Assembly (NCBI GenBank): GCA_963772705.1
Contig: CAVYYH010000011.1
Coordinates: 2,384-66,383, forward strand
Source of the DNA: an uncultured Bacteroidales bacterium
GTDB taxonomy: Bacteria; Bacteroidota; Bacteroidia; Bacteroidales; VadinHA17
DNA length: 64,000 nt
Reading direction: 5' to 3'
Part shown: positions 1-16,126 of the stretch, piece after piece
How positions within the stretch are numbered: the stretch's first letter is position 1
Layout of the letters: every line of letters starts with the position of its first letter
The notes under the pieces: generated by a model
Databases searched by the model: none
What the model was told of the DNA's origin: nothing
The model's input: only the letters and a program-made list of their open reading frames with translations
Position numbers and translations under genes: made by a program

Positions 1-177
1 GCTCCTGCACACAAGACAGCTTTGTAATGGTTCTTGCACCCGGACACGCGCATCTGCCCGTAATATAAATTCAATATACCTTGACAGTTTTCTGGCCCCG
101 CTCAGGCGGGGTACCTGGACCCTGCCCGGATGCTGCGTCGGGTAATACAACCTCCCAATATTGCCGGGCCGTTAGGT
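1..177 (+). repeat. attC site, 3' portion (5' end cut by window edge)
   Basis: Near-identical to 763-853 plus 1027-1109. GC hairpin ccccgctcaggcgggg at 96-111. Ends with L'-like aatattgccgggccg and core GTTAGGT at 171-177. Confidence 0.7.
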
Positions 178-231
178 TTCAGGCAAGAACCACACGATTA
201 TAAAATTCTGTTATTTTAAAAAAGAAATCAT

Positions 232-672
232 ATGAGACATATTGCAATTATTATATGCTTAATATTCTTAATAGCATGCAATACCAGACCAAAACAACCT
301 GATAATTCTCCAATAAAAGCTCCAGAAGTTAGTGCATCAACAGATTCTATTGTACAATTTTTGCTTACCGCAGCTGCCTTAGATTTTTATAACCACCGTC
401 CCCCTGATCCTCTGCGATTCAGGGACGTGAGACTAGGGCACTTAACTGGATCAAATGGAGTAAGGAGGTATTTACTTTGTGGCCAGTTTCTCTCTGTGGA
501 GGAAAAAAACAAAGTTGAATGGATATCCTTCGTGACAATCAAGACAGATCCCTATGAACAATGGCTTGGTAATCAGGCTTATGCATATTGCAATGACACA
601 TCTGTCGTATGGGAGAATGTGAGTGATTTATCTTCTCTACTACAGATTAAATTAGATTCTTTGCGTAGATAG
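232..672 (+). CDS. hypothetical lipoprotein (cassette ORF)
   Basis: 146-aa ORF with a signal peptide and lipobox-like LIAC. Bounded by core GTTAGGT 171-177 and inverse core ACCTAAC 712-718. Confidence 0.6.
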   Translation: MRHIAIIICLIFLIACNTRPKQPDNSPIKAPEVSASTDSIVQFLLTAAALDFYNHRPPDPLRFRDVRLGHLTGSNGVRRYLLCGQFLSVEEKNKVEWISFVTIKTDPYEQWLGNQAYAYCNDTSVVWENVSDLSSLLQIKLDSLRR

Positions 673-711
673 TTTATAAAAACAATCTTGGAATTTAAAA
701 AGAGCCAGAAA

Positions 712-1109
712 ACCTAACACGGACGGTATAATTAATAAGCTCGTCACGGTTTTTGCTTTTGCTCCTGCACCCAAGACAGATTTGTAATGGTTCTTGCACC
801 CGGACACGCGCATCTGCCCGCAATTAAATTCTATACCTTGACAGTTTTCTGGCTTCGATCAACTTGTACCGCGACACTGCGCCAGTGCCCGCAACCAACT
901 TTGTAACCGGGGATAAGTTCGCGGCTCCGATCAAACTTGTACCGCGACACTCGTATAACTCACAAAACTTGTACCTGGATGGCAAAAACCGCGCCGTACT
1001 CTCCTCGCACCGTGACAGTTTTCTGGCCCCGCTGGCGCGGGGTACCAGGACTCTGCCCGGTGCTGTCGTCGGGTAACGCCCACTAAATTATACCGCCGGG
1101 CCGTTAGGT
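712..1109 (+). repeat. attC site, family A, about 398 bp (very long)
   Basis: R'' ACCTAAC 712-718 and R' GTTAGGT 1103-1109 are exact complements. L'' cacggacggtataatt faces L' aattataccgccgggccg with unpaired bases. Internal GC hairpin ccccgctggcgcgggg at 1027-1042. Confidence 0.75.
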
Positions 1110-1283
1110 TTAAGGCAGAGTCTTCTAATGACCATGAAAAAGCCCCCTTGAGAAAGAGATTGAATCATTAAATGTGTCAACGAAACTTCCTATGATTGGG
1201 TGGTTAGTAATAATATTTCAAGGTAAGCAAATACCCTATCTTTATAGTAACTTTGATTAGATTAACCTTCCAAAAATAAACTG

Positions 1284-1844
1284 ATGTGGATTGTAATTAT
1301 TTGCCTGGCCTACCTCTTTGGAATATCGGAATCCATACTTGCTTATGCCAGACGTTCAAAGAATAAGACTGTAAAAACCAGACGTGATAAAGGTTCGTTA
1401 ATAGCCCTTTATGTGGTATTCAGTATTAGCATGACGGCCGGTTTTATGCTGGCTGACTTCAGAACACGCACTGTATCTTATTACCTTACAGTATCTTGTG
1501 GACTGATCCTGTATTTACTTGGACTGATAATAAGGTGGACTGCCATTTTACAGCTTAAAAAAGCCTTTACAGTTGATGTTGCAATTAATCAGCAGCATGA
1601 GCTTAAAACCGATGGTATTTACAGTATAATCAGGCACCCGGCATACCTCGGACTTTGGCTTATCTTCATGGGACTGTCGGTTTCGTTGTACAGCATTTTA
1701 TCATTCATTTCAATTACAATTCCTGTTTTTCTAGTGATTTTGTACAGAATTAAAGTTGAGGAAAAGTTGCTGACTGAGGAATTTGGTGTTGAATATCAAA
1801 ATTATGCTAGGAATACGAGGAGACTGATTCCCTTTATATTTTAA
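1284..1844 (+). CDS. ICMT/phospholipid-methyltransferase-family membrane protein
   Basis: 186 aa, multi-TM. RHPAYLG motif followed by an EE..L region, typical of the isoprenylcysteine carboxyl methyltransferase superfamily. Confidence 0.65.
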   Translation: MWIVIICLAYLFGISESILAYARRSKNKTVKTRRDKGSLIALYVVFSISMTAGFMLADFRTRTVSYYLTVSCGLILYLLGLIIRWTAILQLKKAFTVDVAINQQHELKTDGIYSIIRHPAYLGLWLIFMGLSVSLYSILSFISITIPVFLVILYRIKVEEKLLTEEFGVEYQNYARNTRRLIPFIF

Positions 1845-1884
1845 TTCATTTGCATCTGGTAATCCTGATTTGAAACAGCCCTAA

Positions 1885-2143
1885 ACCTAACAGGTCGGTA
1901 TACGCAATTGGCTTCTGCACCGCGAGAACTCTCTGGCTAAAGAGGACCGTTAAGTACTCAGCGGTGCGGCCTGCCCCGGCTCCCGCCGGGGTACGGCGCG
2001 CCACCGTCCCGATGAATCGGGACGCCAACGCCACATTATTCGCCACTCACTACGGTTCGTGGCTCATGAGCTCGTCCCTGACATAGTTTCAGGCTAAAGT
2101 GTAGTTTTTTCGGCAGGATCCTCGGTTCCGCCGAACGTTATGG
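1885..2143 (+). repeat. attC site, family B, about 259 bp
   Basis: R'' ACCTAAC 1885-1891 followed by caggtcggtatacgcaatt. The 3' end is ggatcctcggttccgccgaacGTTATGG (2137-2143). GC hairpins at 1974-1991 and 2006-2023. Confidence 0.7.
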
Positions 2144-2760
2144 TGCATTTAAAAAAGACAGATATGAAAGATAAATTAGTGTTGAAAATTGGACTTATCC
2201 TCATTTGTATAAGTTTTAACTTATTTCAGAATAAAGCATTCTCTCAAGAGAAATACTTAATTGTACTTGATATTCAGAAATTTCCAAAAAAAAGCACACT
2301 ACTGGATAGTTCAGTTATGAAAATGATACAAAATGTAAATTCTTTGATAAGCCATTTCAATGCCGAGAATGTAATATATATTAAAGCAACAGGAAAGGCA
2401 ATAAGTATTACTTCAAAAGGATTTTCAATAGATACTTTGCCTGCCCCTGATTTTGATAGCACACTTAATATTGTGAGTAATAATATTTTTATCAAAATAG
2501 AAGGAGATGCATTTACCTCTGCAGAATTGATAAGTTTTCTGGAGAATAAAAAAGCAAAAGAGATTGTTTTGGTGGGTCTTATGGCAGAAAAATGTATTTA
2601 TAATACAGCTTTGGGTGGAAAAGACAAAGACTATGACATTACGATTGTACCCGAAGGGATTGTTGGTATGACACAAAAAAAGAAAGATAAAGCAATTGAA
2701 AAAATGAAAGTCAAAGGAATTAAATTTTTACCAATGTCAGCAATAATCAGCGCACCATAA
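2140..2760 (+). CDS. isochorismatase-family cysteine hydrolase (secreted)
   Basis: LIVLDIQ and EIVLVGLMAEKCI motifs. The likely true start is ATG 2164 (MKDKLV signal peptide). The stop TAA lies inside the next attC inverse core ccaTAAc. Confidence 0.6.
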   Translation: MVHLKKTDMKDKLVLKIGLILICISFNLFQNKAFSQEKYLIVLDIQKFPKKSTLLDSSVMKMIQNVNSLISHFNAENVIYIKATGKAISITSKGFSIDTLPAPDFDSTLNIVSNNIFIKIEGDAFTSAELISFLENKKAKEIVLVGLMAEKCIYNTALGGKDKDYDITIVPEGIVGMTQKKKDKAIEKMKVKGIKFLPMSAIISAP

Positions 2761-2886
2761 CACATGGTATAGTACATGCGGGTTTCAGAGGTTTTCGAAG
2801 GTTTATAGTACGTAAAAAAGGTAAGTGTAAACTGATAGGAAATCGCTTCGTAATCCCGCACGACACCATACCATCAGCCGTTAGGT
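2755..2886 (+). repeat. attC site, canonical length (132 bp)
   Basis: R'' CCATAAC 2755-2761 and R' GTTAGGT 2880-2886. Inner inverted repeat acatggtatagtacatgcggg / cccgcacgacaccataccat with mismatches and bulges. Confidence 0.75.
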
Positions 2887-2920
2887 GCAAGGCAATGCTA
2901 AACCCCAAGCAACTGATAAA

Positions 2921-3373
2921 ATGAGATCTGCCACAATAACTTGTTTCATTATTCTATTGATTAACTTGAACCTGAAAGGTCAAACCAAGATCATTACAGG
3001 CAGAGTAATAGATGAAGATTTTGAAACCATACCATTAACTATGATTCAAAACTCTGATTCAATTCTTATCGGACAGACAGATCTGGACGGTTACTTTAAT
3101 ATTGAAATCCCATTAGAAACTGATACTCTATTTTTCAGGTTTATTGCAATGGAATGGAAAACAATCACACTAACTCCTGATTGCGATACTATTGACGTAA
3201 TCCTTATGCATGACGCTATTTATGATTTTATGACAGCTACTAAGATTGATAGACTCCGTATGAAAAGATTCAAACAGTTGCCTGAGTTGCATCAAAAAGC
3301 CTATGAAAAAGGACTGTTTACCACTGTGCAACCTTGTTATGAGCAAGATTTTGTTCCAATAAAAAAAGATTAA
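2921..3373 (+). CDS. carboxypeptidase-regulatory-like (CarboxypepD_reg) domain protein
   Basis: Signal peptide, then GRVIDEDFETIP...DLDGYFNIEIP. The ORF-track start 2885 is a GTG inside the attC core, so ATG 2921 is preferred. Confidence 0.5.
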   Translation: MRSATITCFIILLINLNLKGQTKIITGRVIDEDFETIPLTMIQNSDSILIGQTDLDGYFNIEIPLETDTLFFRFIAMEWKTITLTPDCDTIDVILMHDAIYDFMTATKIDRLRMKRFKQLPELHQKAYEKGLFTTVQPCYEQDFVPIKKD

Positions 3374-3411
3374 ATGCCTTTAAGCAACAGAGAGAAAATG
3401 AATTGCCCAGC

Positions 3412-3678
3412 ACCTAACAGGTCGGTATATGCAATTAACTCCCCCTTCTTAGCATGGCTGGTTGAGCTCAACCTCAGAAGATGCAAAGAATATTTAACCC
3501 AATAGTGGCTGAGGCCTCGGTTGGCTTTCCGTAATGCGAGAATAATGTATTAACCGCATAACCCTGCATCGCATCACGAGTGCGAAAACACCCCGACCTC
3601 TTCGCGTTCGGCACGGGGCACGGCGCGCCACTGTCCGCCAGATGGCGGACCAACTGCACATATTGTCGAACGCTATTT
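3412..3678 (+). repeat. attC site, family B, about 267 bp, degenerate 3' core
   Basis: R'' ACCTAAC 3412-3418 plus caggtcggtatatgcaatt. Shares the module ggcacggcgcgccac + hairpin (3633-3650) with the 1885 element. The 3' end tcgaacGCTATTT is a degenerate core. Confidence 0.6.
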
Positions 3679-3685
3679 GCAATGC

Positions 3686-4590
3686 ATGACAAATACACAT
3701 ATTTACAAGCTCATTTATATGGACAATTACTTGACAGTCTTTAGAAATGAATCGGGAAAACAATTAGTCTTTGAGGCTTATGATTCAGTCATTAACTCAA
3801 TAGGAATTCAATTTGAAGAAATCTATCTGCCCACAAGACTAGGGGAAACTCATATATTAGTCTCGGGTGATAGAAAAAATCCTCCATTGCTACTGGTACA
3901 TGCCTATTATGCATCAGCTGCGTCTTGGTATAAAAACCTGAAGTCGTTATCTGAAAGATTCCGTGTTTATAATGTTGATATAATTGGTGACCCAAATAAA
4001 AGCAAACCGATAAAATTAATACGGCAACTAGATGACTTCCTCGACTGGTTTGAAGATATAATGCAAGGGTTGAACCTTGAAAATGCTGATTTCATTGGCA
4101 ATTCTGTTGGAGCCTTTCATATCACAAATTTTGCAATACATTCGCCAAATCGTGTAAAAAAGATGGTATTGATAGGTCCAGCTGCAACATTTAGACAAAT
4201 TATGCCATTTTATATTAAATACATTTCCTGGTGGAATTACCGGTTGGTCTTTTTTAGTTAATCATGCAATTAAATGGGTAGAAAATGGAGTTGAATTTGA
4301 TCATGAATTCAGAAAGCTATTCTTTTTACTGTTAAAATATGGGAAAGCTACAAATCAAGTATTTCCTGCGGTATTTACAGATCATCGATTTAAAAAAAAT
4401 TAAAACTGCCCACACTACTTATTTATGGAGATAAAGAAAATATCTACAATTATAATTTGGCAATAATCAGAGCAAAAGAGCATATTGAAAACTTAAGAGT
4501 AAGGATTATTAAAGAATGGTAATCATATTACTGCAGCGACAAACTGACGAAATGATAAATAAAGAACTATTGGATTTTCTTAAGGATTAA
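3686..4590 (+). pseudogene. alpha/beta hydrolase, multiple frameshifts
   Basis: The N-terminal 194-aa ORF (HAYYASAASW, GNSVGAF nucleophile-elbow-like) continues in other frames (NHAIKWVENG..., KLPTLLIYGDKENIY..., EMINKELLDFLKD). The breaks fall at T6 and A8 homopolymers. Confidence 0.6.
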
Positions 4591-4601
4591 AATGGCAAAG
4601 C

Positions 4602-4921
4602 ACATAACACGGACAGTATAATTAATGGGTTTGTCATGCTTTTTGCGGGGATTTCTGCCCTTAACTGGGGAAAGGTACTCAACACGCACCTCGATCGCCC
4701 CACTGCCCTTTAAACAGTTTCAGCGATCTGACTATTTCGCTATACCTATCAAATCTGTATCGCGAAACACGTAAATTTCTCACAGTTTTGTACCATGATT
4801 CAAAAAAGCACGCAATACCTTTCTCACATCACCATGACAGGCCGCTCGGTATCGCACCATGACAAAACACATTGGAGCTCGTCGGGGAACGCCCAATAAT
4901 TATATCGCCGGGCCGTTATGT
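4602..4921 (+). repeat. attC site, family A, about 320 bp
   Basis: R'' ACATAAC 4602-4608 and R' GTTATGT 4915-4921 are exact complements. L'' cacggacagtataatt faces L' aattatatcgccgggccg. The centre is homologous to 856-1011. Confidence 0.75.
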
Positions 4922-5133
4922 TTAAGCCTTAAAACCACTGATTACGAGCCAATTTCGTCTTGACAACCTAGGCCTAAGCATAACTCCTAGAAAAGTAGAT
5001 TATCTTTGATTAACTTAACAATTGTGTAAATAGTTATAAACATTGGCCATAGCATCAATATAAATTACTTCCATGTACACAGAGTATTATAATTCTAGCC
5101 TTTGCGTATTTATATTGATTCTTTGAGTTCTAT

Positions 5134-5622
5134 ATGAATGCGAGAATAAAAAAGAAGAGTAGCATTGTTAAATCCAGTGACAAAGGAAGCATTCGCTTTC
5201 TCTTTACATTAATTCAGATTGGCTGCTTGCTTTCATTCGGTATTGGCGCAACAAAAGTAGGTATGATTAATGATTGGAATATCTTATTTATCATTGGAGC
5301 AGTACTGATAATATTTGGAATTATAATAAGATTAAACTCAATCATGACACTTAGGCGACAATATACCTATACTGTAACAAGGATTGAGAATCATGCGCTA
5401 ATTGAATCAGGATTATATAAGACTATTAGGCATCCTGGATATCTGGGACTTGTAATTATTTTTCTCGGGATTTCAACTGCATTATCAAATTGGTTGTCAA
5501 TCATCTTGATGATCATTCCGGTCATCATTGGAATTATGAATCGAATACGAGTTGAAGAAAGTTTTCTAATCGAACAAATGGGTCAAAAATATACTGATTA
5601 TCAAAGCGGACAAAGAAGTTAA
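5134..5622 (+). CDS. ICMT/phospholipid-methyltransferase-family membrane protein
   Basis: 162 aa, multi-TM, with RHPGYLG and RVEESFL motifs. Paralogue of 1284-1844. Confidence 0.65.
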   Translation: MNARIKKKSSIVKSSDKGSIRFLFTLIQIGCLLSFGIGATKVGMINDWNILFIIGAVLIIFGIIIRLNSIMTLRRQYTYTVTRIENHALIESGLYKTIRHPGYLGLVIIFLGISTALSNWLSIILMIIPVIIGIMNRIRVEESFLIEQMGQKYTDYQSGQRS

Positions 5623-5705
5623 TTCCAAATATTTTTTAGCAAATAGGAAGTGCCAACATTAGGGTGAAGTATATAATCAATAAAATACTTTTATAACCTA
5701 AAAAA

Positions 5706-6056
5706 ATGAAACCCACAGTATTAATGAACATCGTCCGTTGGTCGGCTCGCATTATCGGAACATTAATAGTTGCATTCACTTTGTTAATTGGCATTGGTGA
5801 AATGCTTGAGGGGCGTAGTAGGCCTGCTTCTGAACCCAATATCTATAATATTATAACCTTTGTGGTCTGGGGAACAGGACTTTCCGGATTAATATTAGCA
5901 TTATGGAAAGAAGGTTTGGGAGGAATAGTCTCATTGCTTTGTTTTATAATCTTTAATATTCTTGCTGCGATGAATCCTACTCCCGGATCCAGATACATGT
6001 ATATACTTCTGTTTTTATGCTCCCATCATTATTATATTTACTTTACTGGTGGTTAA
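5706..6056 (+). CDS. small integral membrane protein (3' end possibly frameshifted)
   Basis: 116 aa with 3-4 hydrophobic helices. An alternative frame after the T5 run near 6010 continues as LPSLLYLLYWWLKRNSF to about 6110. Confidence 0.45.
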   Translation: MKPTVLMNIVRWSARIIGTLIVAFTLLIGIGEMLEGRSRPASEPNIYNIITFVVWGTGLSGLILALWKEGLGGIVSLLCFIIFNILAAMNPTPGSRYMYILLFLCSHHYYIYFTGG

Positions 6057-6196
6057 AAAGGAATTCTTTCATTAAAATTTCAGAAAACTCAACCACCGGG
6101 CTGTGATGGGCAGATTTAATCGTGCAAACTCCGAAAGGCAACCATGTCACTCGACAACCAGGAGTATCTGGAGTAATTATATTTTATAAAACCAGC

Positions 6197-6442
6197 CCAT
6201 AACACGGACAATATTGGTAAGTTGTCAATCCTACGCCAAAGCAATGGAGGGCAAAGACGGCAAAAAGTGCGCCCCCGTCTAACCCTGCTCATCGGGGCAC
6301 AGCATACCCTCCTTCGTACTCCGAAGCTTTAGCGAAGTAGTACTTTGCACCGTGCTCCGCCAGCTGCCAGCTAAAGTACCGGGATTAGTGCACGATTTGG
6401 CGTCAGGTAACACCTACTATTTTTATTGCCGGGCCGTTAGCG
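6197..6442 (+). repeat. attC site, family C 5' end with A-like 3' end, about 246 bp
   Basis: R'' CCATAAC 6197-6203 plus cacggacaatattggtaagttg. The 3' end is ttttattgccgggccGTTAGCG (6436-6442). GC hairpin ccccgtctaaccctgctcatcgggg. Confidence 0.65.
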
Positions 6443-6515
6443 TTCATGCTAAGACTCCCTACAAATATCAGGATACACCAAGAACCTCTGAATAATTCTT
6501 TAAAAGAACTGTTTT

Positions 6516-7271
6516 ATGACAAAAAACTTCTTAATCTTAACATTTCTGAGCTTTGGGCTAATGGCTGCTGCTCAAACTAAACCAATCATAGAATGGGTAT
6601 CAATTCCTGCCGGAACCTTTACAATGGGTAGTCCCGAAAGTGAGGTTGACAGAAGTAAAAATGAAACTCAGCATCAGGTAACGCTAAGTGCTTTTATGAT
6701 GAGTAAATACGAGATAACCTTTGAACAATACGATTTATTTTGCGATGCCACTGGCAGAAAAAAACCTGGTGATGAAGGCTGGGGTAGAAACAGCCATCCG
6801 GTAATAAATGTAAGTTGGGACGACGCCACTGCCTTTGCCAATTGGATGGGTTGCCGCTTACCTACCGAATCCGAGTGGGAATATGCAGCGCGCGGAGGGA
6901 CTTCCACTCCGTTTGATACAGGCAATAATCTTACTACTTCTCAGGCAAATTATGACGGGAATAATCCCTATAACAGCAATGCAAAAGGAGAATACAGAAA
7001 AAGAACTTTGCCGGTAGGAAGCTTTGAATCAAATGAATATGGTTTATTCGATATGCATGGTAATGTTTGGGAATGGTGCAGTGATTTGTATGGACCTTAC
7101 TCCACCTATCCACAAATAGACCCTCAAGGAGCAACATCAGGTAAAGCCCGTGTACGGCGTGGTGGCGGTTGGAATGACTTTGCGAGGCGTTGCCGGTCAT
7201 CATACCGCGACAACGTCTCTCCTGGATATTCCGACTATTCTATAGGTATCCGTCTTGTCAAATCTAAATAG
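6516..7271 (+). CDS. formylglycine-generating-enzyme (SUMF1/FGE-sulfatase) domain protein, secreted
   Basis: HPVINVSWDDATAFANWMG, RLPTESEWEYAARGG, GNVWEWCSD and RVRRGGGWN motifs. Has a signal peptide. Confidence 0.8.
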   Translation: MTKNFLILTFLSFGLMAAAQTKPIIEWVSIPAGTFTMGSPESEVDRSKNETQHQVTLSAFMMSKYEITFEQYDLFCDATGRKKPGDEGWGRNSHPVINVSWDDATAFANWMGCRLPTESEWEYAARGGTSTPFDTGNNLTTSQANYDGNNPYNSNAKGEYRKRTLPVGSFESNEYGLFDMHGNVWEWCSDLYGPYSTYPQIDPQGATSGKARVRRGGGWNDFARRCRSSYRDNVSPGYSDYSIGIRLVKSK

Positions 7272-7297
7272 ACAACTATCTAAATATCAGCACTAAA

Positions 7298-7379
7298 TGC
7301 TGACAGGTGAGTATTTGCAATTGTCTTCTGTGCCGCGAAAATTTAGAAGCAACCATGCACATACCGGCGAAAATTAGCC
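7298..7379 (+). repeat. degenerate attC (family B-like, about 82 bp)
   Basis: tgctgacaggtgagtatttgcaattg resembles acctaacaggtcggtatacgcaattg. The 3' side gcacataccggcgaaaATTAGCC has a mutated core. Confidence 0.4.
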
Positions 7380-7417
7380 GCAAGCTTTAGATTTCACAAC
7401 CAAATGAATCAATAATC

Positions 7418-7795
7418 ATGAAAAAAATGAGGCAAGATTTTGAACCTCCTGAAGCAATTGTCAAATGGGGATGGAAATTCCACCATATTGGAATTCCTAC
7501 TACTGAAGAAATGCCTGATGAGGATTATCTTCCACAGTTTAAGTTTTATGCTTCTGGCTTTCCATCATCACCATTCGGTATAGAATGGATGCGATTTGAA
7601 AAAGACTCGCCAATTAACTCGTTAATTCAAAAAGTGCCTCATGTTGCTTTTGAAGTGGAGAATCTTGATTTGGAACTTAAAATACACCAGTTTAATATCT
7701 TAACTAAAACAAATAGTCCAGGTAATGGAGTGAGGGTTGCCATGATTGAACACAATGGAGCACCGATTGAATTAATTGAATTCGTAAAAGAATAA
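7418..7795 (+). CDS. small VOC/glyoxalase-like protein
   Basis: 125 aa with HHIGIPT and HVAFEV patterns reminiscent of the VOC fold. Weak call. Confidence 0.4.
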   Translation: MKKMRQDFEPPEAIVKWGWKFHHIGIPTTEEMPDEDYLPQFKFYASGFPSSPFGIEWMRFEKDSPINSLIQKVPHVAFEVENLDLELKIHQFNILTKTNSPGNGVRVAMIEHNGAPIELIEFVKE

Positions 7796-7804
7796 ACAGC
7801 CGAT

Positions 7805-7828
7805 GGCTAACAGGCCGGTATGTTAGGC
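7805..7828 (+). repeat. 24-bp mini attC-like hairpin (inverse core plus half L-box fused to core)
   Basis: GGCTAAC-aggccggtat-GTTAGGC: a family B 5' start abutting a core heptamer directly. Confidence 0.35.
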
Positions 7829-7894
7829 TTCAGCGATGGCAGAGTGCCATAAATTCAGTTAAAGAAGTATTCACGTTGGTAAAGGAGATTACAA

Positions 7895-8801
7895 ATGATT
7901 AAAAAAGTACCCTATAATATCCATTTTGATCTTTTCACTCGTATTATCAGGGTGTGGTTCAAAAGACATTTACAAAAACAAAACTGAGTCACAGAAAATT
8001 GACTCATTAATAAAAGTTCAGGAAATTAATGACAGGACAGTTCTTGTAAAATTTGGTTATGATGCGATAACTGCAATAAAAACCACAAAAGGGATTGTTC
8101 TAATTGATGCGGGAATATCGACATCATTAACAGCACGGTACAAGAATATTATTGAAAACAAATTCGATAACAATAATTTCGTTTATGTAATCAATTCTCA
8201 TGGACACCATGACCATATAAGAGGTAATAGTCTCTTCCCGAAAGCACAGGTCATTGGACATGAAAATTGCCGGAAGGATGGATTTGTGAATCAAAATCCA
8301 GATAGTTTGTCGGTTAGAGTGGGCAAAATTGCAGACGATTATGAGCTTCAGCTTCAGCAATCAATTCCTAATACTGCAGAATGGGATGATATTTTTACTC
8401 AGAAAATCAGGTACAAGGGGGCATATTACGACATAAAAAACCAATATCCCTTTCAGATATCCTGATATCATATTCCCGATAGTATGAAGCTTGAGTGTGG
8501 CGACACTTCTTTTGAAATGATCTATTTTGGCAAATTTCATTCTGCCAGTGATATATTAATCTATGTACCCGAAATGAAAGTACTCTTTACCGGAGATTTA
8601 TTTTCAAAGTATGGCAGGCCAAGCTTTGGCAACTCATCTGACACAGATAATAACAGATGGCTGCATGCAAATAAGTGGATAAATAAAAGGATAAATAATA
8701 TTGAAACAATAATTGATGGTCATGGCCAGATCTTAACAACCGATGACCTTAGAATGTTTAATGAAAATCTTTTATTAAAGTACTCAAAGGAATCTGAATG
8801 A
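7895..8801 (+). pseudogene. MBL-fold metallo-hydrolase lipoprotein, frame-disrupted
   Basis: HGHHDH motif. ATG 7895 (MIKKVPYNI) is out of frame with the lipobox LVLSGC. There is an in-frame TGA at 8463-8465, while an alternative frame reads RYPDIIFP, matching the paralogue at 22046-22928. The sequence resumes as MKLECGDTSFEMIYFGKFHSASD. Confidence 0.65.
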
Positions 8802-8830
8802 CACCCATGTGTCGTTTATTAAGTGTTTCA

Positions 8831-8905
8831 TCCTGACACGATAATTTCTGCTCTTCGTAAGGGACAATACCCTCGCGCGACAGAAAATTTGCCATCCCGT
8901 CCTCA
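8831..8905 (+). repeat. degenerate attC-like site (about 75 bp)
   Basis: TCCTGAC, then ataatttctg ... cagaaaattt inverted repeat, then ccatcccGTCCTCA. The cores deviate from consensus. Confidence 0.4.
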
Positions 8906-8990
8906 TATGCCAAATTCATTAATCTCAATCTGATAAATTTGTTTTACTTTTCTAAAAATAGATAAAACGCATCCATATAAATCAATCATT

Positions 8991-9926
8991 ATGAAATCAA
9001 CAATCTTACTAATTGTATTTCTGACTGCCTTTTACATATGCGCACTTTCTCAGCCTGTTGCACCAAACCAGGGAAACAGAGCCGATAGTTTAATGAGCGA
9101 GGGCAACATTCCTGAAGCAATTGCCGAATATGAAAGATTATATAGCCAGAATCCTAAAGATGCCCGGATAGTATACAATTACGCCTGTGCACTGTCGATT
9201 GATAACACTGTTATTAAGAAATTTGACACTTGTTTTAAGTACCTCAATCTGGCGGTTGAACTCGATACTTCAGTCAATGCCCTTTTGGAACCTGACCTGT
9301 TACCGGCACGCGAAGACAAAAACTGGAGTGTTTTTGAGAATAGGCTTATATCAATGTTAAATGAAAAATACAATAACCCATACAAGGATATTGATTATGC
9401 AAAAGCACTATGGAAACTTGGTGCCCTGGACCAGGCTTATTTTGACGAAATTGGTATTGCATTCAGAAAATTAGGAATGAGATCTTCGGTTGCGTCAGCA
9501 ATCTGGAAATTGAAGTTTATGATACAGGAAAATAACCAGAAGGAACTTGAAAAGCTCGTCTCAGAAAAAGGATGGCCAAAAATAAGTGATGTTGGCCAGC
9601 CTGCAGTTATGGCAGCTTATCTTGTTGCAATGCATACCAATGACGGGAGTCAGAAAAAATACCTGCCAATGATATGGAAGAGTTGCGAGGAGAAGGAACT
9701 TCCATGGCAGAGATATGCAAATATTTATGACAGGTGCCTTTTTAATGAGAATAAGCCTCAGAAATACGGTACACATACTAGATTTAACGAGCAGACCAAA
9801 TCGGAAGAACTCTATCCACTCGAAGATGAATCAAAAGTTGATGAATGGAGAAAGGAACTTGGTCTGGAACCCCTGGCAGATTATCTTGCTCGCTTTAATA
9901 TAAAATATCCACCACAACATAATTAG
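8991..9926 (+). CDS. hypothetical secreted protein
   Basis: 311-aa ORF with a signal peptide and a TPR-like N-terminal segment (AIAEYERLYSQNPKDARIVYNYACAL). Confidence 0.5.
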   Translation: MKSTILLIVFLTAFYICALSQPVAPNQGNRADSLMSEGNIPEAIAEYERLYSQNPKDARIVYNYACALSIDNTVIKKFDTCFKYLNLAVELDTSVNALLEPDLLPAREDKNWSVFENRLISMLNEKYNNPYKDIDYAKALWKLGALDQAYFDEIGIAFRKLGMRSSVASAIWKLKFMIQENNQKELEKLVSEKGWPKISDVGQPAVMAAYLVAMHTNDGSQKKYLPMIWKSCEEKELPWQRYANIYDRCLFNENKPQKYGTHTRFNEQTKSEELYPLEDESKVDEWRKELGLEPLADYLARFNIKYPPQHN

Positions 9927-9967
9927 ACTGATAGCATGTCACATAAAATTGAATTTGAATTATTTGT

Positions 9968-9993
9968 GCTAACACTGACAAAATGGGTAATTG
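9968..9993 (+). repeat. attC 5'-half remnant (family C) fused to the start of the next ORF
   Basis: tgctaacactgacaaaatgggtaattg compares with tgctaacactgacaatatgggtaagttg at 14061. The ATG of ORF 9983 lies inside it. Confidence 0.45.
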
Positions 9994-11719
9994 GATATCG
10001 TTGACACTTATTCTGACATTGTTACAGGGTTGTGCCCGGCAACAATCTTACTATGATTTTAAAACCTCATTCGAAAAGGATTTTAAGGATGAGCTGCATA
10101 AAAACGATGTAAGTAACGCCGCCTATGCAGTGTTTACCGATGATAGTGTCATTTTTCAGGATGCTTTTAGCAATAATGGCACGAAGGTCGATGGCAATTC
10201 GCCTTTTTTAATAGGGTCCGTTACAAAGGTTTTTACAGCAGTTGCAGTGATGCAACTCTACGAACAAGGAAAAATCGACATCGACAAGCCGGTTTCGGAC
10301 TATGTGCCAGACTTTGCAATCAATCAACGTTTCCCCGACTCAGAACCTATTACCATTCGGGCGGTCTTAACACATCATGCAGGCATTCCCTCTGACTACT
10401 ACCTGCACAAATTCAGCAAAAAACAGCACGATTTCAATGAGATATTGCCTTACCTCAATTCGCAATACACCTGTTATCCTGTTGGCGAAATATGGGCATA
10501 CTCCAATCTGGGATATGCCCTGCTGGGCATACTGATTGAGCGTGCAGGCGGACTGAAATACGAAGATTACGTTGTCCGGAACATATTTACCCCATTGGGA
10601 ATGAAGAATTCCGGTTTTTATTCCGATTACGAAAAACAAAAACATTTAGCTATAGCATACTGTTCTGGTAAGAAGACATTCGAATATCCATTGCTGGATA
10701 AGCCAGCCGGGGCCATCTATTCAACAGTCAATGATATGGTTCTTTTTTGCAGGGCATTTATCGACAAAAAAGAACGTCTCTTAAAAAATGCCACACTTGA
10801 AGATATGTACGTGATTCAAAACCGCGATAATCTTCTGGATATGGACCATCGGATGGCTATTTGCTTTAACTATAAAAATAAGGCTTATGAACTGGGCCGG
10901 GTATTAGAACACGGAGGGGCTACCATGTACCATCGGGCACAAATGGTTATTGCACCCGATGCCGGGCTTGCTGCCATAATGCTCTCCGACTCACCCACCG
11001 GAAAAGACAACGCATGGAAACTTGACGAACAGCTGATGGTTGAATACTGCAAGACAACACAACTTGTGATTGATAAGGCTTTGAATCCCGAGAAAATAAC
11101 CCCGCTCACCCCTATCAGCAGTAAAAACCTGGCGCAATACGCAGGTAATTACGCCATGCCCGGTATGGTGTGCAAGTTCGAATGGAAAAACGGGTATCTG
11201 TCACCTACCATCAACGGGCAGAATTTTTACCTGGCGCCACATGATTCCAATTCATTTGTCCCTGCCAAACGCTTTCTGGGCATGATGCTCAAATCGAAGA
11301 AAATGTATTTCCTTCTTGAAGAAATAAATGGTGAGAAACATTTTATCCAGGCGATGCCATGGGGAGGCTTAAACATAATCGGTACCCAATTCAATCCGGA
11401 ACCAATTCCTCAGATATATCAAAACCGGACCGGAAATTACACCATAATGAATACAGATGATGAAGATGTACCATCGCTCGAAAAGGTCAGGATTTGTATA
11501 GAAGATGGGGTTCTGTTATTGAAATATTGTTTTAACCCTGAAATGTCGTTTGGTCAGGATGCAAGTCTTGCATTAGATATTTCTAATGATTCTGTTTCGT
11601 TTGTAATGGGCTATGGGCGCGGCGGAGGCGAGAGCGTGGTCTTTGATAAAAATGGTGACACTTTCCGGTATATGGGACTTAAGCTTAAAAGAACTGTGGA
11701 TTCGTCCATAAAAGAGTAA
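9983..11719 (+). CDS. serine hydrolase (beta-lactamase/transpeptidase-like fold) lipoprotein
   Basis: SxxK motif GSVTKVFTA, YSNLGY, lipobox LLQGC. 578 aa. Confidence 0.75.
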   Translation: MGNWISLTLILTLLQGCARQQSYYDFKTSFEKDFKDELHKNDVSNAAYAVFTDDSVIFQDAFSNNGTKVDGNSPFLIGSVTKVFTAVAVMQLYEQGKIDIDKPVSDYVPDFAINQRFPDSEPITIRAVLTHHAGIPSDYYLHKFSKKQHDFNEILPYLNSQYTCYPVGEIWAYSNLGYALLGILIERAGGLKYEDYVVRNIFTPLGMKNSGFYSDYEKQKHLAIAYCSGKKTFEYPLLDKPAGAIYSTVNDMVLFCRAFIDKKERLLKNATLEDMYVIQNRDNLLDMDHRMAICFNYKNKAYELGRVLEHGGATMYHRAQMVIAPDAGLAAIMLSDSPTGKDNAWKLDEQLMVEYCKTTQLVIDKALNPEKITPLTPISSKNLAQYAGNYAMPGMVCKFEWKNGYLSPTINGQNFYLAPHDSNSFVPAKRFLGMMLKSKKMYFLLEEINGEKHFIQAMPWGGLNIIGTQFNPEPIPQIYQNRTGNYTIMNTDDEDVPSLEKVRICIEDGVLLLKYCFNPEMSFGQDASLALDISNDSVSFVMGYGRGGGESVVFDKNGDTFRYMGLKLKRTVDSSIKE

Positions 11720-11800
11720 TAAGCAAACAATTACCCATTTAAAATTTATTCAGACATATAAGGCACGAACACATGACAAGCATAATAAACTAAACAAACT

Positions 11801-12561: not shown

Positions 12562-12619
12562 CCATAACACGGACGGTAGTGTTAATAAACTTTCACTAAC
12601 TCTTACCGCCGGGTCGTCA
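12562..12619 (+). repeat. attC site, family A, short form (58 bp)
   Basis: CCATAAC plus cacggacggtagtgttaat ... cttaccgccggGTCGTCA. The 3' core is degenerate. Confidence 0.6.
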
Positions 12620-12875: not shown

Positions 12876-12905
12876 CGTCAAATCGAAATTGTATAAACAA
12901 ACTGA

Positions 12906-13033
12906 GCATAACATGACGGTATATGCAATTAACTCCCCCTCCGGTGGCGGGGTTCGTTGAGCTCGTCCATGACAGAGTTACAGGTTAGAGAGTAGATTTT
13001 TCGGCAGGATCCTCGGTTCCGCTGAACGTATGC
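12906..13033 (+). repeat. attC site, family B mosaic (128 bp)
   Basis: GCATAAC 12906-12912. The 5' part matches 3420-3450 (ggtatatgcaattaactccccct). The 3' part matches 2065-2143 (gagctcgtcc.tgaca.agtt.cagg...ttttcggcaggatcctcggttccgc.gaacgt). Confidence 0.7.
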
Positions 13034-13126
13034 AAACAAACTAGCGAAATCTATTCTAGAATTCTATATTGAATTCTCAATGACTACATTTTAAAATTTG
13101 AGTTTAATCCTATTCCTTAATCTCAC

Positions 13127-14054
13127 ATGAAAAAAAACTACCCGCCTGAAGGAGAACCGACAGTTGATCTAATTAGCAATCCTTCCAGATATGCTCAAAA
13201 GCCAATACGGGGATTATTAATAATCTTTGCTGCACTCTCAGTGTGTATGTTGATCGTCGGCTTTTTCCTTTATGGTATTTTAAAGCTCCCGCAGGAATTT
13301 TCAGACAGTAATGCTTTATCGACCGTGATTCTGTTTACAACATGCAACATTATTGCATATCTTTTTGTGCCATATTTGTTGCGGATTCCAAATGGAAAGC
13401 GTACGTTCAGAGAATATCTAAGTGATATAGGCCTTACACGCATCCAACCATTTTCACGACTACTAATTCTAACAATTTCTTGTTTGCTTATACTTATTTT
13501 ATGCCAGGGAAGCGGTTCTTTGGTATATAGATTGACGGAGGGTAAACCTTTAACGGCTGACTTTATTAGAACGGTCTTTGACTTATCCTTAGCTCTACCA
13601 CCGAAATCAATCCTATTATTTACCGTATTTTATTCAATGTTCGAAGAAGTATGCTTTCGAGGTGTTTTTCTTACTATGCTTTTACACAAGTATTCTCAAT
13701 TTTAATGCAATTCTTTATTCAGCACTTGCTTTTGGAGTATTTCATATTTTCGCTGTATTTGCTGGAGGAGAGTTGGTTACTACTATTGCTCAGGTTGTGT
13801 GGGCATTCATTTTCGGGATATTTTATGGTTACATCTTCGTTAAAACCGGAAGCTTATGGCCATCAATGATAATTCACTGGCTAAGTAATGTATTTCAGTC
13901 CACTCTTACGGTTTATTGGTTGTCAGCACCTATATTTGAGAGAGCATTATTTGGAATTATTTTTGGTTATGGTCTGGCAGCCTTTTTTTCGATATTTTGG
14001 GTTCGTTTTTATTCATCAAAATGGCTTAAACCTCAAAAACAAGGACTGAATTAA
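13127..14054 (+). pseudogene. CPBP-family intramembrane glutamic endopeptidase (CAAX protease-like), one frameshift
   Basis: Motif 1 EEVCFRG is in frame A. Motifs 2 and 3 (FGVFH and HWLSN) are in frame B. The shift lies near the T4 run at about 13695. Confidence 0.7.
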
Positions 14055-14060
14055 TACGTT

Positions 14061-14241
14061 TGCTAACACTGACAATATGGGTAAGTTGTCTCCCACATTG
14101 CGGGACAGGTTGTCTCACTTTTTGCCCCGCCTTAGGGCGGGATCAGGTTCGTCTCCGCCAATGTCTGGCTCCTCCCGATTCTGTCATTAAGTGTCAGAAC
14201 TAAATGCAGGGCCCCCCTCCTATACTGCCGGTCCTTTATGC
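14061..14241 (+). repeat. attC site, family C, about 181 bp
   Basis: TGCTAAC plus cactgacaatatgggtaagttg ... cctatactgccggtccTTTATGC. GC hairpin cccgccttagggcggg. Confidence 0.6.
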
Positions 14242-14267: not shown

Positions 14268-15332
14268 ATGAATCTCCTTGACCTCGGATTTAATGATGAG
14301 CTCGCTGCCTGTCTGAGAGAAAATCAACTTACTGACTTTTCAATCGGCAGAGTGACTCAGGAACACCGGGAAAGATATGTCGTCTCAGATGGTGAAAATG
14401 AATATACTGCTGAAATTACCGGCAACTTAAGATTTGCTGCAAAATCAAGAACTGATTTTCCTGCTGTCGGTGACTGGGTGGCAATGACAACCTATGACTC
14501 CGATCAGGCAATTATTCATAAAATACTTCCCAGGAAATCAGTACTTGAAAGACAGGCTGTTGGCAAATTTGGCGAGACTCAGATCATTTCTGCAAATATT
14601 GACGTTGCGTTTATTGTTCAGGCAATAAACAATAATTTCAGTATAAACCGGCTTGAAAGATACCTGACTATATGTTATTCAGCTAACATTGAGCCAGTTC
14701 TGGTAATTAGCAAGATTGATTTATCCACCGAAAAAGATATTCAGGAAGCAATCAGCACCCTTGAAAAAAGAGACAAAAAAGTCAAGTATATCCTGCTCAG
14801 TAACATGACCCTGAAAGGACTTGACCAGATATTGGATTTTATACAAAAAGGAAAAACATATTGTGTAGTTGGCTCCTCGGGAGTTGGCAAATCAACCTTG
14901 ATCAATAACCTGTTAAAAAAGAACGTATTAAAAACAGGTCAAATAAGTCTGAGCACAAACAAGGGAAGACATACCACTGATCATCGTGAATTATTTGTTC
15001 TGGAAAATGGCGGTATCATAATTGACACCCCGGGAATGAAGGAACTGGGCATGACAGATAATGCGGAGGGGATTATAACAACATTTCAGGAGATCGTTAA
15101 CATCGCGTTAAATTGTAAATTTCCTGACTGTAAACACATTAATGAAACCGGATGTGCTGTAATTGATGCACTGAACAATGGGACTATCGACAAAGATTCC
15201 TATGATAACTATCAAAAAATTCAGAAAGAACAGGAAAGATTTCAGACTACTGTTTCAGAAAAACGAAAAAAAGACAAAGCCTTCGGAAAGATGATTAAGA
15301 ACTATTTTAAAGACAATAAAAACAAGTTCTAA
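14268..15332 (+). CDS. rsgA: ribosome small-subunit-dependent GTPase A
   Basis: Circularly permuted GTPase motif order: SKID, GSSGVGKSTLIN, DTPG. C-terminal zinc knuckle CKFPDCKHINETGCAV. Confidence 0.85.
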   Translation: MNLLDLGFNDELAACLRENQLTDFSIGRVTQEHRERYVVSDGENEYTAEITGNLRFAAKSRTDFPAVGDWVAMTTYDSDQAIIHKILPRKSVLERQAVGKFGETQIISANIDVAFIVQAINNNFSINRLERYLTICYSANIEPVLVISKIDLSTEKDIQEAISTLEKRDKKVKYILLSNMTLKGLDQILDFIQKGKTYCVVGSSGVGKSTLINNLLKKNVLKTGQISLSTNKGRHTTDHRELFVLENGGIIIDTPGMKELGMTDNAEGIITTFQEIVNIALNCKFPDCKHINETGCAVIDALNNGTIDKDSYDNYQKIQKEQERFQTTVSEKRKKDKAFGKMIKNYFKDNKNKF

Positions 15333-15552
15333 GCATAACACGGACAATATGGGCAAGTTGCTTCCCCCTTCGACGGACAAAATGTCACTATTTTTGAATG
15401 AATATGAGCCTCTTGCCATGGCGCGTCAGAAGCCCACGCACCCGTACATACACCATTTCCGCCAGCCGTGTATTTCTTCACAATAATGTTAAGTCTTAAC
15501 CACGGCAGTTGTTACTACGGAACATTAAACCTCATCCCTGCGAACGTTATTG
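15333..15552 (+). repeat. attC site, family C, about 220 bp
   Basis: GCATAAC starts 1 nt after the rsgA stop and is followed by cacggacaatatgggcaagttg. The 3' end is ccctgcgaacGTTATTG at 15546-15552. Confidence 0.65.
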
Positions 15553-15986: not shown

Positions 15987-15991
15987 AAGCA

Positions 15992-16095
15992 CCTTTAACC
16001 ATTTTAATATTAATGGGCTTTAAAGGTAGCTCCGGGCTTAAGGGACAGTTAAGTGATTCTGATCCGTTGCTCCACATGCATGCAAGCCGTTACAG
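15992..16095 (+). repeat. attC-like site (about 104 bp)
   Basis: cctttaac at the 5' end is complementary in 7 of 8 positions to GTTACAGG at 16089-16096. Contains an internal hairpin cctttaacca...tgggctttaaagg. Confidence 0.45.
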
Positions 16096-16126
16096 GGCAT
16101 AGCCACTCTAATAAATACCATCGCAT

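Follow-up and report, generated by a model that had tools for sequence, protein, structure and literature searches.

The first 16 kb of a 64,000-nucleotide (nt) stretch of contig CAVYYH010000011.1, from an uncultured Bacteroidales bacterium (the whole stretch is hereafter called the window), hold an array of gene cassettes that is probably part of a Bacteroidales-specific integron-like system with long, structured sites of the attC type. The array runs from position 1 to ~16,100, the remaining 48 kb being ordinary chromosome, and consists of small open reading frames (ORFs) in tandem, on the + strand throughout. Each unit comprises one, at times two, + strand ORFs followed by an attC-type site; these inter-ORF elements are richer in G+C, with YYTAAC at the start and GTTRRR at the end. 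Position 1 itself falls within a site-like element and, since the window thus starts inside the array, the array head lies outside our view.

attC sites have been described with lengths of ~57 to 141 bp and with a poorly conserved variable terminal structure of 20 to 100 nt (Cury 2016, PMC4889954). The first-pass annotation of the window had delimited much longer sites (181 to 398 bp) by RYYYAAC-like and GTTRRRY-like heptamers, side by side with sites of normal length at 2755-2886 and 12562-12619. It was right as to positions and lengths: each of its intervals is bounded by such heptamers (the 3' one, R', being degenerate in A4 and A12, as it also is in A13), the two normal-length sites are present in the same array, and the lengths, with a mode of ~240 bp and a maximum of ~400 bp for the family as a whole, lie beyond the described attC range. 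Its view that the extra length represents a central variable region has to be given up, as the centre consists of conserved modules that are common to sites and genomes and that form a covarying branched fold.

A site of this family starts with xYTAAC-A-(C)GG-(A or T bulge)-CGGTAT, a start common to both end families that we distinguish (family 1 and family 2), and finishes with ATACCG-CC(G)-(GGCC or GAAC)-G/TTAGG, which pairs with the start as an R box plus an L box. The interior is made up of 150 to 350 nt of conserved sequence forming local helices P2, P3, and P4. The last of these is near-invariant (GTCAYGGTTTTTGC paired with GCAAAAAC); its distance from the 5' end is 30 nt in family 1, as it is in one 120-nt site, whereas in family 2 it comes after P2 and P3. 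The site-like elements of the window are as follows, with model positions referring to nhmmer matches to hidden Markov models (HMMs) of the two families, built from relatives.

1 to 178, + strand: left-edge element, a long family-1 site of which the window start leaves the 3' two-thirds, with R' (GTTAGGT) at 170-176; 95% and 82% identical to A1 761-824 and 1009-1076, and matching family-1 model positions 49-146 and 316-396.
712 to 1109, + strand: A1, a 398-bp family-1 site with R'' (ACCTAAC) at 712-718, R' (GTTAGGT) at 1103-1109, and crossover G1103/T1104; its 5' parts are CGG (720-722), a bulged A (723), L'' (724-733), and the P4 5' half GTCACGGTTTTTGC (743-756), and its 3' parts are the P4 3' half GGCAAAAACCGCGCC (981-995), L' (1086-1095), CCG (1096-1098), and GGCC (1099-1102).
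1885 to 2143, + strand: A2, a 259-bp composite family-2 site with R'' ACCTAAC and R' GTTATGG (G2137/TT); a 5' part at 1885-1991 (R'', L'', P2, P3; family-2 model positions 2-107), P4 deleted, a degenerate internal L'/R' at 2024-2046, and a 3' module of ~100 nt at 2047-2143 that is almost confined to the lineage of the window and supplies the R' in actual use.
2755 to 2886, + strand: A3, 132 bp and thus of canonical length, a simple long hairpin without P4, with R' GTTAGGT (G2880); its predicted fold closes through the L box.
3412 to 3678, + strand: A4, a 267-bp family-2 site with R'' ACCTAAC, a degenerate R' (GCTATTT), and a replaced middle; family-2 model positions 1-30 lie at 3413-3442 and 130-239 at 3526-3675, both ends being in family register.
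4602 to 4921, + strand: A5, a 320-bp family-1 site with R'' (ACATAAC) at 4602-4608 and R' (GTTATGT) at 4915-4921; the P4 5' half GTCATGCTTTTTGC is at 4633-4646 and the 3' half at 4800-4814.
6197 to 6442, + strand: A6, a 246-bp family-1 site with a replaced centre, R'' CCATAAC, R' GTTAGCG, and the P4 3' half GGCAAAAAGTGCGCC at 6259-6273; it matches family-1 model positions 1-28 and 268-396 though left out of model building, and its minimum-energy fold closes the ends, the L box being partly decayed.
7296 to 7375, + strand: A7, a short degenerate family-2 site with R' ATTAGCC, matching family-2 model positions 3-53.
7808 to 7830, + strand: a 24-bp remnant, GGCTAACAGGCCGGTATGTTAGGC, with R' following directly on the start of R''/L''.
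12562 to 12619, + strand: A12, 58 bp, with family-1 ends and a mutated R' (GTCACAC).
12905 to 13036, + strand: A13, 131 bp, a family-2 5' end joined directly to the lineage-specific 3' module, with R' GTATGC (one T lost).
14061 to 14241, + strand: A14, 181 bp, with a family-1 5' end (the match being limited to family-1 model positions 2-44), a motif like the P4 5' half at 14112-14125, and a decayed 3' end, CCGGTCCTTTATG.
15333 to 15552, + strand: A15, a 220-bp chimera of a family-1 5' end (match limited to family-1 model positions 2-43), a P4-like motif at 15384-15397, and a family-2-type 3' end, GCGAACGTTATTG.
15990 to 16100, + strand: the last site-like element of the array, ~110 bp, ending in GCCGTTACAGG, read from the sequence and folded.

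That the long units are the ones that recombine is borne out by a comparison with L001, a contig of a related strain that encodes an identical ICMT protein and shares cassette DNA at ~93 to 97% identity, in a different cassette order. In five comparisons of window and L001 junctions, identity switches exactly at the G/TT of the outermost core. The ICMT cassette is preceded by the 398-bp A1 in the window and by a 132-bp A3-like site in L001; A3 is followed by CarbopepD in the window and by ICMT in L001; A2 is followed by an isochorismatase in the window and by DNA_alkylation in L001; and the cassette with a 125-amino-acid (aa) ORF is preceded by A7 in the window and by a composite site in L001, the junction of A7 with this ORF equaling the L001 junction rightward of the crossover point. 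The ICMT ORF and its long site have shifted together, i.e., the site travels with the upstream ORF. Since A1 and A3 share just CGTTAGG, the exchange points to site-specific rather than homologous recombination, and since identity switches at the outer cores, the long units are the true cassette boundaries. Together, these alignments of related sequences show crossover at the G/TT of the outer core, with the long unit moving along with its cassette.

A scan of a genome collection, seeded with the family-2 5' motif and yielding figures that count the matches listed and are therefore lower bounds, placed the sites of the window in a large family. At least 264 seed matches were found on at least 119 genome tiles, the majority belonging to assemblies of uncultured Bacteroidales or Rikenellaceae, and the P4 motif follows at least 199 of these 264 listed seeds, on at least 78 tiles; a tile often carries 4 to 8 copies in 8 kb, on one strand. 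Among the matches listed, element length has its mode at 225 to 250 bp (70 of 133 elements), with a tail to ~400 bp, and 63 distinct copies of ~240 bp have a mean identity of 78 to 80%. Full-length relatives of A1 itself occur in L092, L130, L001, and L066, and over 411 bp it is 87.8% identical to L054 2491-2899. With the order and register of the site modules unchanged in dozens of assemblies and an identity of ~80% for the centre between assemblies, the extra DNA is to be regarded as conserved, not variable.

Two ideas were set aside. A1 might have carried an internal duplication or insertion of its own, with GACAGTTTTCTGGC on its flanks, but the 400-bp form is kept in at least five other assemblies; and a match in the cultured isolate L056 (Porphyromonadaceae COT-184) lies within a coding region and was ruled out as a chance match. 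Chance or errors of binning may also explain some of the single-match tiles from non-Bacteroidales bins.

Within the window, the 3' motif GCCGGGCCGTTAGG has seven matches (with up to 3 mismatches) versus 1.9 expected, a number reached in none of 100 shuffles, and the 5' motif has three matches versus 0.03 expected; the family HMMs match on the + strand only and between 1 and 16 kb only. The HMM matches bear on the idea that selfish repeats (MITE- or REP-like) or fused remnants were inserted into short attC sites, the true sites being short. Such insertions would account for the composite make-up of A2 and A13, where an internal degenerate L'/R' is followed by the ~100-nt 3' module, and for insertions and deletions between short direct repeats, as in the L001 equivalent of A2 on the same cassette, which measures 400 bp instead of 259 bp by virtue of an additional 140 bp between GGGGCAC direct repeats. 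The remnant at 7808-7830, moreover, attests to large, near-complete internal deletions, the homologous cassette in L001 having a 248-bp site. The first-pass annotation had allowed for shorter hairpins inside its intervals, and for A2 (by its internal L'/R') and A13 this is partly borne out; no canonical-length hairpin with its own R''/R' is present within A1, A4, A5, or A6. Since, in addition, the HMMs find no match in the 48 kb flanking the array, the modules keep their order and register over dozens of assemblies, and the cassette junctions fall at the outer cores, we consider insertion of repeats extremely unlikely as the source of the extra length. The copies, being on the same strand and within the array, also do not behave as dispersed repeats of the REP, BIME, or MITE type.

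The conserved centre has a conserved fold. RNAalifold, mutual information, and pair counts agreed on a terminal stem (the R box plus an L box of ~20 bp), P2, a G+C-rich hairpin P3, and P4. In the curated structure of 41 pairs, 97.5% of cells are paired, compared to 91.5% in shuffles, and 17 pairs show compensatory changes, compared to 8.4 expected, with none of 500 shuffles reaching 17; pairing drops to 34 to 46% when the partners are slid. In the 315- to 400-nt class, the terminal stem is paired in 93.6% of cells versus 85.3% in shuffles (not reached in any of 500), with five compensatory pairs, and slid partners pair in 33 to 52%. Site ends that lie 220 to 400 nt apart thus covary. For the canonical family element of ~240 nt, the bottom strand is predicted to fold as a three-way junction with the terminal stem closed.

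Covariation alone cannot separate RNA from single-stranded DNA, and the sites lie directly 3' of ORFs, on the coding strand, so that the centre could also be conceived as a structured 3' untranslated region serving in stabilization, processing, or termination, with the short terminal cores alone recombining. Several observations make this RNA element very unlikely. Among cells that depart from Watson-Crick pairing, 24 are G.T compatible on the bottom strand and 9 on the top strand (P = 0.014, ignoring relatedness), an asymmetry in the aligned sequences that weakly favors a folded bottom strand over a top-strand RNA. Rfam 15 gave no match in the window at the gathering threshold and none, even at an E value of ≤0.1, in L001, L031, or L051. 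Terminator-like sites are not enriched (15 seen versus 12.6 expected), and the outermost helix of the fold is the very R/L stem that contains the crossover site. The same scan showed no enrichment of promoters; it models sigma-70 promoters, not those of Bacteroidetes, and no promoter was identified.

For individual sites of the window, the ends were paired in a 10-by-10 test, every 5' end against every 3' end. The cognate ends of A1 pair at −18.5 kcal/mol, the best of all combinations, those of A5 rank first at −13.0 kcal/mol, and those of A3 and A12 are likewise the best, with A6 taking an intermediate position. Folded as DNA, the bottom strand of A1 reaches −74.2 kcal/mol (z = −3.38), and its minimum-energy and centroid structures alike contain the terminal stem and P4; the bottom strand of A5 reaches −41.8 kcal/mol (z = −1.65), and its terminal stem is closed in both structures. 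In these folds, the terminal stem consists of the R box, a 3-nt bulge, and the L box with one bulged base. An L''/L' inverted repeat with an unpaired spacer and an extrahelical base is found in A1, A5, A3, and A12 and, by covariation, at the level of the family. That the paired heptamers belong to one unit is supported by the G/TT junctions, the covariation of the ends, and the closed terminal stems of A1 and A5. In A2, A4, and A13, the ends pair weakly, and in A14 and A15 they do not pair.

The enzyme came into view in related genomes. Among 125 loci searched by tblastn with an IntI1 probe, six tyrosine recombinases were found, none of which has the IntI insertion, and four of the six form one family whose members lie upstream of arrays and are co-oriented with them. 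Four more homologues, with 57 to 71% identity, were looked up blind; three of these (L126, L130, and L131) showed the same full layout, and in the fourth, L128, the recombinase and an attI-like motif are seen before the contig ends, just past the motif and before any array. The order of recombinase, attI-like motif, and same-strand array is thus present in L039, L052, L099, L126, L130, and L131, and the platform as a whole reads rnf operon, DUF4180 plus GPP34, recombinase, an optional Exo_endo_phos gene, motif AATATGCMTACCTTTASTACMCATATAAACRAGTTAG, and an array with sites of 219 to 399 bp. The attI-like motif is conserved in seven loci and ends in GTTAG, and the sequences diverge straight after GTTA, as would be expected of an attI-type insertion point.

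These recombinases reach 161 to 227 bits against the IntI profile TIGR02249, below its cutoff of 265, and the match is split into two stretches. An alignment to IntI1 leaves a gap of ~43 residues at the IntI-specific insertion, and, since the profile and PDB matches are also split, the gap is implied independently of that alignment. By sequence and by predicted fold, the closest solved structures are XerA (5hxy) and then IntI4 (2a3v). The recombinase model has an extra N-terminal beta/alpha domain of ~70 residues, followed by a disordered linker; a Foldseek search with the whole model returned relatives of the catalytic domain only and no match for the N-terminal domain. In PMC9668308 (citing Messier and Roy 2001) and PMC4792948, the additional domain of IntI is reported to be necessary for activity.

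The first-pass annotation had called the sites attC, a name that implies an IntI partner. We found no IntI in the window or in the loci fetched, and the seven related heads carry a recombinase without the IntI-specific domain. It is still conceivable that the array belongs to an ordinary integron. Its sites would then be canonical attC sites whose variable terminal structures happen to be very long, they would be recombined by a canonical IntI from elsewhere in the genome, left of the window or at another locus, and the Xer-like gene at array heads would be a bystander. The R''/R' cores, the L box with its bulged base, the unpaired spacer, the array layout, and the G/TT crossover all fit attC, integrons have been reported in Bacteroidota (PMC9668308, PMC8618304), and the window, starting inside the array, leaves the head out of sight. 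We nevertheless consider this unlikely, since all seven related heads share an insertion-less recombinase and the attI-like motif, none of the seven having IntI, since an integrase is also missing from the left edge of the array in L001, and since a centre that is ~80% conserved between assemblies and covaries is unlike a free variable terminal structure.

The kinship of the enzyme with Xer raises another alternative, namely, a double-stranded Xer-type site with accessory sequences, comparable to cer and psi, whose length would serve the binding of accessory proteins that enforce intramolecular deletion. The cer and psi sites combine a core of ~30 bp with ~180 bp of accessory DNA, for a total of ~200 to 250 bp, which the ~240-bp length seen here resembles, and the associated enzyme is Xer-like and lacks the IntI domain that reads extrahelical bases. 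Against this, stems whose halves lie 40 to 400 nt apart show compensatory changes, which is a prediction of intrastrand pairing and not of proteins binding to a duplex, and centre-less sites of 58 to 132 bp occur in the same arrays, with the A3 core in use. Xer sites, moreover, have double-stranded cores of 28 to 30 bp, with two 11-bp arms on either side of a central region of 6 to 8 bp, and are not known to show long-range compensatory pairing, to flank tandem cassettes, or to have RYYYAAC...GTTRRRY ends. Long-range covariation argues for a folded single strand, and we give the cer/psi-like explanation hardly any weight.

Returning to the integron-like system, we envisage that the inner helices P2, P3, and P4 would bring the distant site ends together and that the recombining form would be the folded bottom strand, as in integrons. 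The enzyme would be the Xer-like tyrosine recombinase that heads related arrays, with its N-terminal extension and without the IntI-specific insertion, and the conserved attI-like site that follows the recombinase gene would be where the first cassette begins. In the window, cumulative GC skew climbs over the whole length (1-64000), which makes the + strand the probable leading strand and would place the bottom strands of the sites on the leading-strand template. This is the orientation described for sedentary chromosomal integrons.

A number of observations weigh against this interpretation. The tblastn search found no integrase in the window or in L001 to L006. As neither the window nor L001 contains a recombinase, the link to the Xer-like enzyme comes from related genomes only; nor does an attI site show in the window or where the L001 array begins on its left. 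A canonical IntI was found neither in the window nor in any fetched locus, and, as the genomes were covered as tiles with 10-kb flanks, one may exist elsewhere in related genomes. The cognate ends of A2, A4, A13, A14, and A15 pair no better than noncognate ends, a loss that we ascribe to what HMM mapping shows of these sites: replaced middles (A4, and also A6), a 5'-only match (A14), a chimera (A15), and a composite (A2). The strand test is modest, and its P value is uncorrected for relatedness. The NERD site and A2 are 95% identical over 155 nt, and part of the shuffling could be homologous recombination between such near-identical 3' modules. Finally, A3 and A12 have no P4, yet the A3 core has been used, which means that P4 is not strictly required.

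The window array itself resembles a cluster of attC sites lacking integron integrases (CALIN), that is, an array alone, and is most likely an orphan, decaying copy, since no recombinase is present, several cassettes are pseudogenes, and several sites are eroded or chimeric. Frameshifts were seen in several cassettes and left three of them pseudogene-like: an alpha/beta hydrolase cassette (3677-4530), a metallo-beta-lactamase-fold protein (7926-8801, as 7926-8465 plus 8484-8801), and a membrane protein (13127-14054, as 13127-13705 plus 13662-14054). The three are consistent with an eroding array.

The cargo is of a kind typical of integron cassettes and includes two ICMT/PEMT-family proteins, an isochorismatase, an FGE-sulfatase, a metallo-beta-lactamase-fold protein, a serine beta-lactamase-family protein, and SIMPL, SnoaL, and RsgA proteins. 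The two ICMT/PEMT-family cassettes are paralogous (1284-1844 and 5134-5622), and the second ICMT/PEMT ORF is in one cassette together with a DUF7670 ORF (5706-6056), the stretch between the two (5623-5705) being free of sites. The RsgA-family ribosome-biogenesis GTPase (14268-15332), normally the product of a housekeeping gene, is placed like a cassette between site-like elements. A 578-aa beta-lactamase-family ORF (9983-11719) is bracketed by a perfect 13-nt inverted repeat, AAATGGGTAATTG and CAATTACCCATTT (9967-9993 and 11728-11740). The left copy, which includes the start codon, is within an R''/L''-like motif, TGCTAACACTGACAAAATGGGTAA, that is 96% identical to the 5' end of A14, and this gene may lie within a split attC-like site. 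Sequence look-ups for the window proteins encoded at 232-672, 6516-7271, 2140-2760, and 2164-2760 returned nothing.

Further observations concern the platforms of related genomes. Six of eight platforms (L126 12677-13468, L128 12112-12921, and L131 11714-12523, and also L052, L099, and L041) have an Exo_endo_phos gene, for an EEP-family nuclease or phosphatase, after the recombinase gene and before the attI-like motif, and those of L039 and L130 lack it; its product could be an accessory factor. In L126, L128, L130, and L131 (positions 1-10000), the platform is downstream of the rnf operon, following DUF4180 plus GPP34 in three of the four, and this conserved chromosomal position suggests vertical inheritance. 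A second arrangement of recombinase and array was seen in L017, where a different, short tyrosine recombinase without the insertion (6339-7350) is divergent from the array and the 5' end of a family-2 site lies ~75 bp from its start codon.

Compared with known systems, the sites agree with attC in their RYYYAAC/GTTRRRY ends, imperfect L''/L' repeat, unpaired spacer, bulged base, and G/TT crossover, as well as in having one site per promoterless cassette, co-directional cassettes, similar sites within an array, and mixed lengths. The closest kind of attC are the homogeneous repeats of sedentary chromosomal integrons, such as those of Vibrio cholerae (~120 to 130 bp). Unlike attC, the sites described here are typically 240 bp and at most 400 bp long, with a centre that is conserved over many species-level assemblies, a multihelix junction with the near-invariant P4, an asymmetric spacer (1 nt versus 4), and no IntI partner found. 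Similarly, a tyrosine recombinase at the array head, an adjoining conserved site ending in GTTAG, a syntenic chromosomal location downstream of the rnf operon, and, in related genomes, arrays rich in toxin-antitoxin genes and small enzymes are all as in an integron platform, and intI is co-oriented with the cassettes in "inverted-integrase" integrons. The platform differs in its recombinase, which is without the IntI-specific domain, stays below the TIGR02249 cutoff, and has the extra ~70-residue N-terminal domain and linker, and in the Exo_endo_phos gene that often separates the recombinase from the attI-like motif. The system, in short, would operate as an integron but departs from the definition on two counts: its recombinase has no IntI-specific domain, and its sites lie outside the attC range of size and variability.

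In surveys that defined integrons by IntI and by attC sites with short loops, Bacteroidetes appeared nearly integron free: IntegronFinder 2.0 found the phylum essentially devoid of integrons, with only In0 elements earlier and then one complete integron, in Salinibacter (PMC9024848). A literature search, with subscription-only papers outside its reach, turned up no account of attC sites this long, nor of Xer-like integrons, in Bacteroidales. Among uncultured Bacteroidales of soils, sediments, and digesters, large arrays with long sites are common; if our interpretation is true, they would constitute a major reservoir of mobile cassettes that is invisible to current tools and that includes genes for beta-lactamase-family and metallo-beta-lactamase-fold proteins, toxin-antitoxin systems, and acetyltransferases. 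Searches have an easy handle in the P4 helix and the conserved ends, and folded sites of 240 to 400 nt make the maximum distance between the arms of a single-stranded site testable.

More tentatively, we speculate that many Bacteroidales may possess a vertically inherited platform by the rnf operon, at which an Xer-type recombinase without the I2 domain and with a new N-terminal domain would capture and shuffle cassettes via branched, single-stranded sites of 240 to 400 nt, with P4 as a second recognition module replacing the reading of extrahelical bases by IntI. A recombinase that does without the supposedly essential attC recognition domain bears on the evolution of integron integrases from Xer (PMC4792948), and, should the platform prove to work in this way, it would represent either integron-type recombination that arose independently from Xer or an intermediate form that has survived.

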